DNA from: Escherichia phage REP5
Sequence record: OQ174504.1
Direction: 5' to 3' (one strand)
DNA length: 64,000 bases
Shown here: piece after piece, positions 56,925-58,776 of the stretch
Numbering within the stretch: the first letter of the stretch is position 1
How the letters are laid out: each line of letters begins with the position of its first letter
Position numbers and translations under genes: made by a program
The notes under the pieces: generated by a model
What the model was told of the DNA's origin: nothing
What the model saw: only the letters and a program-made list of their open reading frames with translations
The model's database searches: none

Positions 56925-57250
56925 CACTTAAGAGTCTTCTAAGAGGGTTTTTAAGTGATGTGTAGCTTGGTCAGGTATGGTGCGGTGGTGTAAGGTGGTG
57001 TCAGGTGTAGTATGGTGCGGTGATGTGAGGTATGGGTAGTTAGTCTCAGCTACATTAAAATGAGACTTACCTTTTTAAAAGGTCTTTAAACAGGGTCTTT
57101 TAATAAGGTGGGGTGGGGTGGTGTATGGTCTGGTAAGGTGGGTGTGGCGCGATATGGGTGGATGGTAGTAGCCACGTTAAAAATCTACCAAGTTTCTAAA
57201 GAGTCTTCTGTTGAGGGTTCTTTACAAACAACTTAACAATCAACTAAAGT
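56925..57250. repeat. GT-rich repeat array A (two units, each ending in a hairpin)
   Basis: GGTRTGGT-rich cores; hairpins 57042-57067 (AGTCTCA/TGAGACT) and 57165-57190 (GGTAG/CTACC) with conserved A-rich loop. Confidence 0.65.
57221..57250 (+). promoter_or_regulatory. Promoter-like element (-35 TTTACA, 18 bp, -10 TAAAGT)
   Basis: Same -35/-10 pair as in type B cassettes; followed by RBS GTGGAG and ATG at 57266. Confidence 0.45.
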
Positions 57251-57265
57251 GTGGAGCTAAATGCT

Positions 57266-57853
57266 ATGAAACTGTTAAATATCAAAATCACTGGTACTCG
57301 TCCTTTCTTGAGCCATAACGATACGTTGTCAGACCCATTAAACCCTCTGACGAAATATCACAAGTCTCTGTCCAGTAAACGTAAAAAGACTGACGAAGAC
57401 TATGCGCTCTTAGCAGAAAGTCAATTGGTAACTTCTTGCTACTACGATGAGCAACTAGGTTTTGTTATGAACGGTGAGATGATTGAGGCTTGTATCAAGT
57501 CTGGTGCAAAACTCAACAAACTTGGTAAGGTAATTGACCGAGCCATTATGCTGACAGATGTAGTCTTCCCAATGACTATCAAGAACTGTCCAGCAAACCC
57601 ACAAGAACTTGCTAAGAATCCAGACTTCATCTACGCTAAGTCTGTTAAGATTGGTACAGCACGAGTTATGAGCTACCGTCCAATCTTCCGTGACTGGTCT
57701 GTAGAGTTCGGTTTGATGTTCGATGAAGAGCAAATCACCCGAGAGGAACTTCTGATGGTTCTGGAAAATGCTGGTAACCTTTGTGGTGTAGGTGATTGGC
57801 GTCCACGCTTTGGTCGTTTTTCTGTAGAAGTTATTTCAGAAGGTAACGTTTAA
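57266..57853 (+). CDS. Hypothetical protein
   Basis: Start at ATG 57266 after RBS (longest ORF begins at GTG 57251). Confidence 0.6.
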
Positions 57854-57855
57854 TT

Positions 57856-58296
57856 ATGAATACAAAAGCATTAGCAGCAAAGTTTAGTTACGGTGACACT
57901 GTATCACATTCTGAGATGGACACCTTCTTAGGTATTGTGAAGCCAACTTATCAAGGTGACATTGTTAAGTACGAAGATGAAATGAAGGCTTATGCGCTTA
58001 CACGTCTAAACCGACTTGAGAAGTTTATTGAGAAGCTTCTTAAAGAAGAGAAGATTTATCTGGTTGCTTCAATGGGTGTTGGTTATCGTGTGGTTGAACC
58101 TAAGCATCAAGCAACTATTGCAAAACGTAAAATGTCTGGTAAGATTGGTCGCGCTTTAAAGCAAGCCACTCAAGCAATTGAGAATGTGAACACTATGGCA
58201 CTTAGTCATCAAGAACGCTCACGACTGATTGAACAGCAAAACCATTTAGCTGCTATGAAAGCTAACATTAACAAGCAACGTAGAAAACCTTTCTAA
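57856..58296 (+). CDS. Hypothetical protein
   Basis: 146 aa ORF, coupled to upstream gene. Confidence 0.6.
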   Translation: MNTKALAAKFSYGDTVSHSEMDTFLGIVKPTYQGDIVKYEDEMKAYALTRLNRLEKFIEKLLKEEKIYLVASMGVGYRVVEPKHQATIAKRKMSGKIGRALKQATQAIENVNTMALSHQERSRLIEQQNHLAAMKANINKQRRKPF

Positions 58297-58302
58297 GTTG
58301 AC

Positions 58303-58330
58303 TAGGTAGCCTCTTAGGAGGCTCCTTTTT
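58303..58330 (+). terminator. Rho-independent terminator
   Basis: Hairpin tagcctcttaggaggct followed by ttttt. Confidence 0.55.
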
Positions 58331-58735
58331 AAAAGGTCTTTAAGAGGGTCTTTTAATGAGGTTTGGTATGGTCAGGTATGGTGTGGTGTTGTAAGGTTTG
58401 GTGCGGTCAGGTTAGGCTTGGTATGGGTAGTTAATCGGAGCTACATAAAAATCCGATTACATCACTTAAGAGTCTTCTAAGAGGGTTTTTAAGTGGTGTT
58501 TGGTAGGATAGAGTAAGGTAAGTTAAGGTAGGGTGAGGTCTGGTATGGTAAGGTAATGTATGGGTAGTTAGTCTCAGCTACATTAAAATGAGACTTACCT
58601 TTTTAAAAGGTCTTTTAAGAGGGTCTTTTAACAAGGTATTGTATGGTGTAGTTTGGTTAGGTATGGTTAGGTGTGGTAAGGTAAGGTAAGGTATGGAAGG
58701 ATGGCAGTAGCCTTATAAAAAATCTGCCAAATAAG
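58331..58735. repeat. GT-rich repeat array B (three units, each ending in a hairpin)
   Basis: Hairpins at about 58427-58458 (AATCGGA/TCCGATT), 58567-58600 (AGTCTCA/TGAGACT), 58697-58730 (GGCAG/CTGCC) with conserved A-rich loop. Confidence 0.65.
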
Positions 58736-58776
58736 CTATAAAATCTGTTGACAAGTCAGGTGTTATAGCTTATTTT
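58732..58776 (+). promoter_or_regulatory. Promoter-like element with flanking inverted repeat
   Basis: TTGACA at 58748-58753, 17 bp spacer, TATTTT; bracketed by ataagctata / tatagcttat. Confidence 0.45.

Follow-up and report, generated by a model that had tools for sequence, protein, structure and literature searches.

Guide-RNA arrays of a presumptive type II VIPR system in the Felix O1-like coliphage REP5 and their predicted targets in Escherichia coli satellites

Systems named VIPR (for Viral Interference Programmable Repeat) consist of Vipr, a small protein with a RAMP fold, the accessory protein Vap, and vrRNAs of ~100 nt, each of which carries 9-16 YNNGG repeats with a conserved GGY and a hypervariable NN and is closed by a 3' pseudoknot cap (10.64898/2026.04.26.720920, 10.64898/2026.04.26.720927). 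Vipr has a minimal RAMP fold with an RRM core, a glycine-rich loop and a thumb. In the model system, that of Escherichia phage SUSP1, whose clade is defined by >90% Vipr identity and counts 13 loci, ~100-nt RNAs co-purify with Vipr, which forms a helical filament on the vrRNA; the complex pairs with DNA in an R-loop triplex and represses transcription of double-stranded DNA targets in a programmable manner (10.64898/2026.04.26.720920, 10.64898/2026.04.26.720927). Here we analyse two arrays of GT-rich units and the two genes that they enclose, at positions 56925-58730 of a 64,000-nt stretch of Escherichia phage REP5 (OQ174504.1; the whole stretch is referred to as the window). With high confidence we assign this locus to the type II VIPR systems, SUSP1 clade; it resides in a Felix O1-like coliphage (Felixounavirus) and appears to be aimed at a satellite that parasitises the phage. 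VIPR guide arrays have already been described in the bioRxiv preprints of 2026, and the window adds no new kind of system.

RNA-guided defence of a phage against a satellite is known from the lytic phage ICP1, in which the guides of a type I-F CRISPR (clustered regularly interspaced short palindromic repeats)-Cas system target the PLE satellite of Vibrio cholerae and degrade the satellite DNA. Both this system and the REP5 locus are phage-borne and RNA-guided, with guides directed at a parasitic satellite, but the REP5 locus is predicted to silence transcription, is much smaller and is unrelated in sequence. There is also a likeness to class 1 CRISPR-Cas. There, too, the guide RNA is coated by a polymer of a RAMP-fold protein (Cas7 on the CRISPR RNA), bases are flipped by a thumb at regular intervals, and guides come in arrays separated by structured elements. 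In contrast, type II VIPR is phage-encoded and has no cas1 or cas2, no spacer acquisition, no contiguous spacer, no protospacer-adjacent motif and no nuclease, and its specificity resides in two of every five guide bases, read against two of every three target bases.

The enclosed genes and the layout of the locus

The first of the two genes, vipr (57266-57853, + strand), encodes a RAMP-fold protein of 195 aa, counted from its ATG. Over residues 1-195 it aligns with PDB entry 36pp, 'SUSP1 Vipr protein' (E 1.5e-127), with 190 of 195 residues identical (97.4%) and five substitutions. As this identity exceeds the >90% cut-off of the preprint, the locus falls within the SUSP1 clade. Residues H17, K33, E71, M72, R138, C173, D177, W178 and R179, named by the cryo-electron microscopy (cryo-EM) preprint as contacting G1, G2, Y3 and the target backbone (10.64898/2026.04.26.720920, 10.64898/2026.04.26.720927), are all present in the REP5 protein.

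The second gene, the accessory vap1 (57856-58296, + strand; 146 aa), starts 3 nt past the end of vipr. It is 99.3% identical to the gene adjoining vipr in two SUSP-type loci (L019 and L021), and vap is 99-100% identical in 20 related loci. Vap1 has no Pfam family and no sequence relative in the PDB, and in PHROGs it falls into a family listed as function-unknown. With a single-sequence AlphaFold model (predicted local distance difference test score, pLDDT, of 68), Foldseek returned nothing below E 0.2, weak matches to winged-helix regulators being at the top.

Two units lie upstream of this cassette (u1, 56925-57075; u2, 57076-57195) and three downstream (u3, 58326-58462; u4, 58463-58600; u5, 58601-58730), all on the + strand, and in the downstream array the unit starts are spaced by 137-138 nt. 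The five units and the two flanked open reading frames (ORFs), as first proposed in a first-pass annotation made from the letters of the window, are all in the sequence. Every unit has three parts, namely an RNA hairpin of ~30-40 nt, then 10-15 GGY/NN pentamers, then an H-type pseudoknot of 34-35 nt.

The SUSP1 type II locus is closely similar: besides Vipr (97.4% identical) and vap (99.3%), it shares the GGY/NN pentamers with a 3' pseudoknot, the arrays on both sides of vipr-vap, and targets in the same kind of satellite, with tape-measure and baseplate genes. It differs in having one upstream and three downstream guides, against two and three in the window, whose phage is a Felixounavirus and whose arrays include one 4-nt repeat.

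In a sequence search of phage records, Escherichia phages REP6 and REP7 were 100% identical over the 2.2 kb from 56700 to 58900. Altogether 230 records matched this stretch, with at least 80% of it covered in 113 of them, for the most part Felix O1-group phages of Escherichia and Salmonella; vipr was present in about half of the matching records (129 versus 230). Parts of such units have been labelled 'DR_4' (in wV8), 'repeat_region' or 'direct repeats', without a function, in older genome papers and annotations of Felix O1 and wV8.

Code and structure of the vrRNA units

The GT-rich core of the units had been described in the first-pass annotation as 'GGTRTGGT-like'. Such a core is present, but it is more regular than this, and register parsing resolved it into a strict period-5 repeat in GGY-NN register, a code that the description had missed. 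Tandem Repeats Finder independently gave period 5 and its multiples. Outside the tracts, neither strand of the window has a stretch with at least nine GGT per 60 nt. All five guide tracts lie on the + strand. That of u1 (56959-57033) comprises 15 GGY/NN pentamers, the first two of which are degenerate, and that of u2 (57107-57155) ten repeats, the eighth of which has only 4 nt (GTGT), so that the register is shifted by one. Tracts of 13 repeats are found in u3 (58360-58424) and in u4 (58497-58561), the latter with degenerate GGY motifs (GAT, AGT and GTT), and u5 (58635-58694) has 12.

The same code is found in relatives. Eighteen close IMG/VR loci, with Vipr 96-100% identical, carry three to six GGY tracts each, one to three on either side of vipr-vap; a SUSP-type locus among them has 1 + 3 tracts, in agreement with the published SUSP1. 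In 19 of 19 loci, all GGY tracts are on the gene strand. Among 950 pentamers from 81 vrRNAs of these 19 loci, G2 was conserved in 98%, Y3 in 100% and G1 in 78%, figures somewhat inflated by the filter used to collect the pentamers (at least two of the three GGY positions); the information of N4 and N5 was 1.90 and 1.88 bits. The 81 vrRNAs hold 62 distinct NN strings, while Vipr is 96-100% identical, and thus the guides turn over fast as the proteins stay nearly fixed. Three of the four parsable guide strings of the window are unique among the 19 loci compared.

Downstream of each tract follows a tail whose two helices, stem 1 and stem 2, interleave. The fold is therefore an H-type pseudoknot, and its third loop is A-rich. 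Again on the + strand, the tail of u1 (57034-57067) pairs GTAG with CTAC in stem 1 and AGTCTCA with TGAGACT in stem 2; that of u3 (58425-58458) has the same stem 1, GTAG/CTAC, and AATCGGA/TCCGATT as stem 2; and the u4 tail (58562-58595) is of the u1 type. In u2 (57156-57190) the stems are GTGG/CCAC and TGGTAG/CTACCA, and in u5 (58695-58729) AAGG/CCTT and TGGCAG/CTGCCA. A terminal hairpin with an A-rich loop had been noticed here in the first pass. The stems then listed (AGTCTCA, AATCGGA, GGTAG and GGCAG) do pair downstream, and the A-rich loop exists, but they are stem 2 and loop 3 of a pseudoknot that had gone unrecognised.

Covariation of the tail was assessed with 23 distinct tail sequences, taken from 19 phage loci and one satellite. 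Pairing was found in 91% of the cells versus 74% in shuffles, and 0 of 500 shuffles did as well. Stem 1 covaried as well and was 100% paired, and nine of the 12 pseudoknot pairs had changes on both sides, in keeping with the earlier claim that compensatory change reflects selection on RNA structure. When the partner columns were slid, pairing fell to 25-43%. In the relatives, tails of the GTGG type invariably stand directly upstream of vipr and those of the AAGG type at the end of the array. The covarying 3' pseudoknot agrees with the 3' pseudoknot cap resolved by cryo-EM in the SUSP1 preprint.

Hairpins on the + strand precede all five guides. Those before u1 (56921-56961; -20 kcal/mol, z -6.0) and u4 (58459-58499; -19.1 kcal/mol, z -6.3) are of an alpha type. 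A beta type precedes u2 (57075-57103; -6.1 kcal/mol, z -1.9, the weakest copy), u3 (58324-58361; -11.7 kcal/mol, z -2.8) and u5 (58598-58636; -11.8 kcal/mol, z -3.0). The two variants of a conserved start motif that had been described for the units were confirmed; its core is present five times in the arrays and twice elsewhere in the 64 kb, where 0.17 would be expected by chance. A sixth, degenerate copy, overlooked in the first pass, has no repeat tract and forms a gamma hairpin between u2 and vipr, just upstream of the latter (57192-57229, + strand; -13.6 kcal/mol, z -3.1). We rejected the start motif as a genome-wide phage promoter, as it is essentially confined to the arrays. The beta motif read as a sigma-70 promoter (TTAAAA-17-TTTAAT) failed the criteria of the scan; conservation alone cannot separate a promoter from the hairpin model.

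The consensus of 23 distinct hairpin copies has 14 pairs, six of them with compensatory changes, and it is mainly in the loop that the sequences of relatives differ. Of the 23 sequences, 21-22 retain the two G.U pairs of the stem. Since a G.U pair becomes a C.A mismatch on the complementary strand, the hairpin structure is specific to RNA read from the + strand.

These structures bear on the question of whether the units might act as DNA, either as iterons of an origin or partition site or as operator arrays bound by the enclosed proteins; an origin/partition-like site and protein-binding arrays had been offered in the first-pass annotation beside tandem small-RNA genes. The repeats are indeed tandem and non-coding and flank two small genes whose function was then unknown, and the direct half-repeat AAGAGTCTTCT / AAGAGGGTTTTT in the start motif could pass for a protein-binding site. 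However, a DNA site does not account for two nested pseudoknot helices that covary, for G.U pairs that are strand-specific and exist only in RNA, or for GGY tracts that keep to the gene strand throughout the 19 loci. Moreover, the 97%-identical SUSP1 protein binds RNA, not array DNA, and the homologous SUSP1 units are ~100-nt RNAs bound by Vipr. We therefore give action as DNA virtually no credence; tandem small-RNA genes were the right option of the three. Protein pull-down is the experiment that established the homologous SUSP1 system (10.64898/2026.04.26.720920, 10.64898/2026.04.26.720927).

The units do not make a CRISPR array either, in which identical direct repeats of 23-50 nt would alternate with unique contiguous spacers beside cas genes: only hairpin and tail are conserved, the variable part is a pentamer repeat, and the neighbouring ORFs include no cas gene. 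The earlier judgement 'not CRISPR-like' is thus correct for the sequence architecture, but not for the predicted function, which is that of guide RNAs on the filament of a RAMP-fold protein related to Cas5/6/7.

Guide matches in E. coli satellites

When the locus was compared with E. coli genomes by BLAST, vrRNA-like sequences were found in 84 chromosomes. The first satellite examined was a ~12-kb element inside yecE with genes for a serine recombinase, baseplate, tape measure and HNH nuclease and a long non-coding stretch. The satellite family with serine recombinase, baseplate and tape measure is present in 502 of 5426 E. coli genomes and is of the same kind as the satellite in the VIPR preprint (Fig. 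S14 legend). We scanned 17 diverse copies of about 500, together with the 64-kb window, by the published rule, in which each GGY stands for one unspecified base and the NNs are read, with a cut-off of at least 80% NN match (10.64898/2026.04.26.720920, 10.64898/2026.04.26.720927).

Guide u1 matched the satellite tape-measure gene at 24-27 of its 30 NN bases in 11 of the 17 satellites. Two other guides matched around a leftward operon. For u5 the site lies 27-62 nt upstream of the start codon of the first gene (20-21 of 24 NN bases; 8 of 17 satellites), where it covers two elements of a TTGACA-17-TAGTAT promoter, its extended -10 and the start of the transcript; u3 matched the antisense strand of the first gene itself (23-24 of 26; 3 of 17). 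A single satellite had a match to u2, at 17 of 20 NN bases, in a tape-measure gene (L035, 9291-9320). Further inferred sites are L003 8491-8535, L036 14015-14053 and L030 14781-14816; E. coli EC12, O157:H7 E32511 and P24_WM1_05.20 are among the strains that bear a satellite. Guides u1, u3, u4 and u5 with shuffled order (u2 was left out of this control) reached at most 20-22 in the first 11 satellite loci. Arithmetic from the gene coordinates places the skipped base at the codon wobble position for u1, u2 and u3, and natural targets, too, have the skipped base at wobble positions (10.64898/2026.04.26.720920, 10.64898/2026.04.26.720927). Judged by these matches, at least three guides, and probably four, appear to be aimed at an integrated E. 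coli satellite family with tape-measure and baseplate genes. Self-targets of at least 80% were not found, the best matches in the 64-kb window being 60-75%; about 23 kb of the phage genome lie outside the window.

Repeats of short G-containing motifs are also known from RNAs that do not target DNA. TRAP binds (G/U)AG repeats and CsrA binds GGA-repeat RNAs, so that the RNA titrates the protein or is regulated by it. As in these RNAs, the motifs at the REP5 locus are short and evenly spaced with one protein subunit each, but the spacers of TRAP and CsrA RNAs hold no targeting information, and these RNAs have neither a pseudoknot cap nor DNA binding. The units could, in principle, be small RNAs of that sort, protein sponges resembling CsrB/RsmZ or regulators that base-pair with host mRNAs, and their many evenly spaced GG motifs within a structured non-coding RNA do superficially resemble CsrA-titrating RNAs. 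Their motif, however, is GGY at a fixed 5-nt period and not A(N)GGA in hairpin loops. The NNs, read with one base skipped, agree with satellite genes at 80-92%, far beyond what shuffled guides reach, and the skipped base coincides with the wobble position of codons, something not expected of a sponge. The units also belong to no known Rfam family: covariance models run at a permissive E-value gave at best 11-22 bits against gathering thresholds of 38-70, all from unrelated eukaryotic families. Small RNAs that do not target DNA are hence highly improbable here. Given the period-5 code, the identity of Vipr and the targets, we also dropped G-quadruplex or telomere-like DNA, Chi-like GT-rich recombination islands, TRAP- or CsrA-type titrating RNAs, preQ1-like riboswitch pseudoknots, degenerate tRNAs, and a small ORF of 42 aa at 57108-57236.

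Several points weigh against a fully functional VIPR system that targets satellites. The sample of satellites scanned was small. Guide u4 had no target of at least 80% in the 17 satellites or in the 64-kb window, and an exact one-base-skip scan of IMG/VR gave 0 matches; in the satellites it matched at best 20 of 26 NN bases, no better than background and out of the proper codon phase. Its tract also has three GGY motifs that are degenerate. The register of u2 is broken by the 4-nt repeat, and the only target of this guide is borderline, G-rich and read across the short repeat. A promoter scan detected no canonical promoter ahead of the downstream array, which itself lies 3' of an intrinsic terminator after vap1 (58308-58323, + strand). 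Finally, for RNA expression, processing, binding by Vipr, the skip rule and repression we rely on extrapolation from SUSP1, whose system is 97% identical.

Alternatively, VIPR may have partly decayed in REP5, with u2 and u4 as non-functional relics and a system that brings little benefit. Such decay would fit the 1-nt deletion in u2, the three degenerate motifs and missing target of u4, and the variation from three to six tracts among close relatives, which speaks for gain and loss of guides. In contrast, vipr and vap are intact and nearly invariant, u1, u3 and u5 have strong targets, and internal repeat degeneracy is frequent in working vrRNAs according to the preprint (10.64898/2026.04.26.720920, 10.64898/2026.04.26.720927). 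Partial decay is consequently rather unlikely in our view, and we favour a working VIPR locus.

Four of the 17 satellites (L003, L032, L037 and L041) carry a vrRNA of their own. The copy in the satellite of E. coli EC12 (L003, 14984-15083) has a sigma-70-like promoter, recognised by eye, and a terminator-like hairpin. No satellite locus examined encodes vipr or vap, and therefore the satellite guides would have to borrow the Vipr of the helper phage. The best matches of the satellite vrRNAs lie in the right-end non-coding DNA of other satellites, the same location as in the VIPR preprint (10.64898/2026.04.26.720920, 10.64898/2026.04.26.720927), and none lies in the phage window. The EC12 satellite vrRNA also matches, at 21 of 24 NN bases, a site between cmoB and torZ that lies ~2.6 kb from the satellite (L003, 19573-19608). 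This site looks like a host repetitive extragenic palindromic element, and the match could be due to chance or mark a real host site.

The satellites (L003 and L028-L043) occupy at least four integration sites, inside yecE (DUF72), at tonB-yciI, at wrbA-ymdF and at mdtG. They are often interrupted by insertion sequences and vary in their accessory genes, among them Dam methylase, HNH, AP2 and helix-turn-helix protein genes. In some satellites, the annotation lists a transcription factor of the AP2/ERF family; in the window, an ORF just upstream of the ligase region (53793-54329) has a translation that, read by eye, resembles an AP2/HNH-type homing endonuclease. The window further contains ~1.6 kb free of ORFs (11450-13000) with dense tandem repeats of the CTTAACA(R)/TCTAACAA type, at periods of 11-31. 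Within it, 44 nt (12314-12357) are 93% identical (E 1e-9) to a satellite non-coding region (L003, 14560-14601) that is rich in similar repeats. In the repeats at 11450-13000, phage and satellite may share an iteron field with an origin or regulatory role, in which case the satellite would mimic its helper.

Transcription, guide maturation and proposed action

A sigma-70-type promoter (TTGACA-16-TATACT, 11 of 12 positions) stands upstream of the first array, on the + strand at 56864-56891, and from its position we infer that it drives u1-u2-vipr-vap. Transcription of the downstream array may come about by read-through of the terminator after vap1 or start at an unrecognised promoter. The downstream array is closed by a terminal hairpin with 19-bp arms and a T-run (58729-58780, + strand; -17.8 kcal/mol, z -4.6). 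Within this hairpin lies TTGACA-17-TATTTT (58748-58776), a sigma-70-like promoter for the gene that follows (58821-59204), such that termination of the array and the start of the neighbouring gene use common DNA.

The hairpin between units is an obvious candidate for the element at which arrays are cut into guides. Neither of the two VIPR preprints mentions, in its text, such a hairpin or the cutting of arrays into single guides; in other VIPR types, guides are separated by hammerhead ribozymes (10.64898/2026.04.26.720920, 10.64898/2026.04.26.720927). By analogy, the hairpin could be the counterpart of these ribozymes. We hold it quite possible, if slightly doubtful, that it is a dedicated element of vrRNA biogenesis or a boundary element of type II arrays. 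It may serve as a processing site for a host enzyme of the RNase III type. The Vipr filament grows 3' to 5', with the pseudoknot as its starting point (10.64898/2026.04.26.720920, 10.64898/2026.04.26.720927), and the hairpin may also be a stop that fixes the 5' end of this filament.

The sequence-level requirements of the VIPR mechanism are all present at the locus, and by extension from SUSP1 we propose the following course of events. The five units would give rise to ~100-nt vrRNAs, each a GGY-NN pentamer tract capped by a 3' pseudoknot. Vipr would polymerise along the tract with one protomer per pentamer, burying GGY and presenting NN. The NN dinucleotides would then pair with double-stranded target DNA, with every third target base skipped, and the bound complex would block transcription without cutting. 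Vap1 would enhance the silencing, an effect taken from the SUSP1 preprint. In this way the phage would silence a parasite of its own infection by shutting down the main operon and the tape-measure gene of the satellite; that the REP phage gains an anti-satellite benefit is what we infer from the guide matches.

In conclusion, VIPR represents a newly reported form of RNA-based DNA recognition and has been proposed as an ancestor of CRISPR effectors. That a textbook example could be found from raw sequence alone means that its signal is visible by eye. The REP5 window flags the inter-unit hairpin as a candidate part of guide maturation and places VIPR in a mainstream coliphage of the Felix O1 type. 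Furthermore, it adds a phage guide repertoire with its inferred satellite sites, in a promoter, the first gene of an operon and the tape-measure gene, and fast turnover of guides beside nearly frozen proteins.

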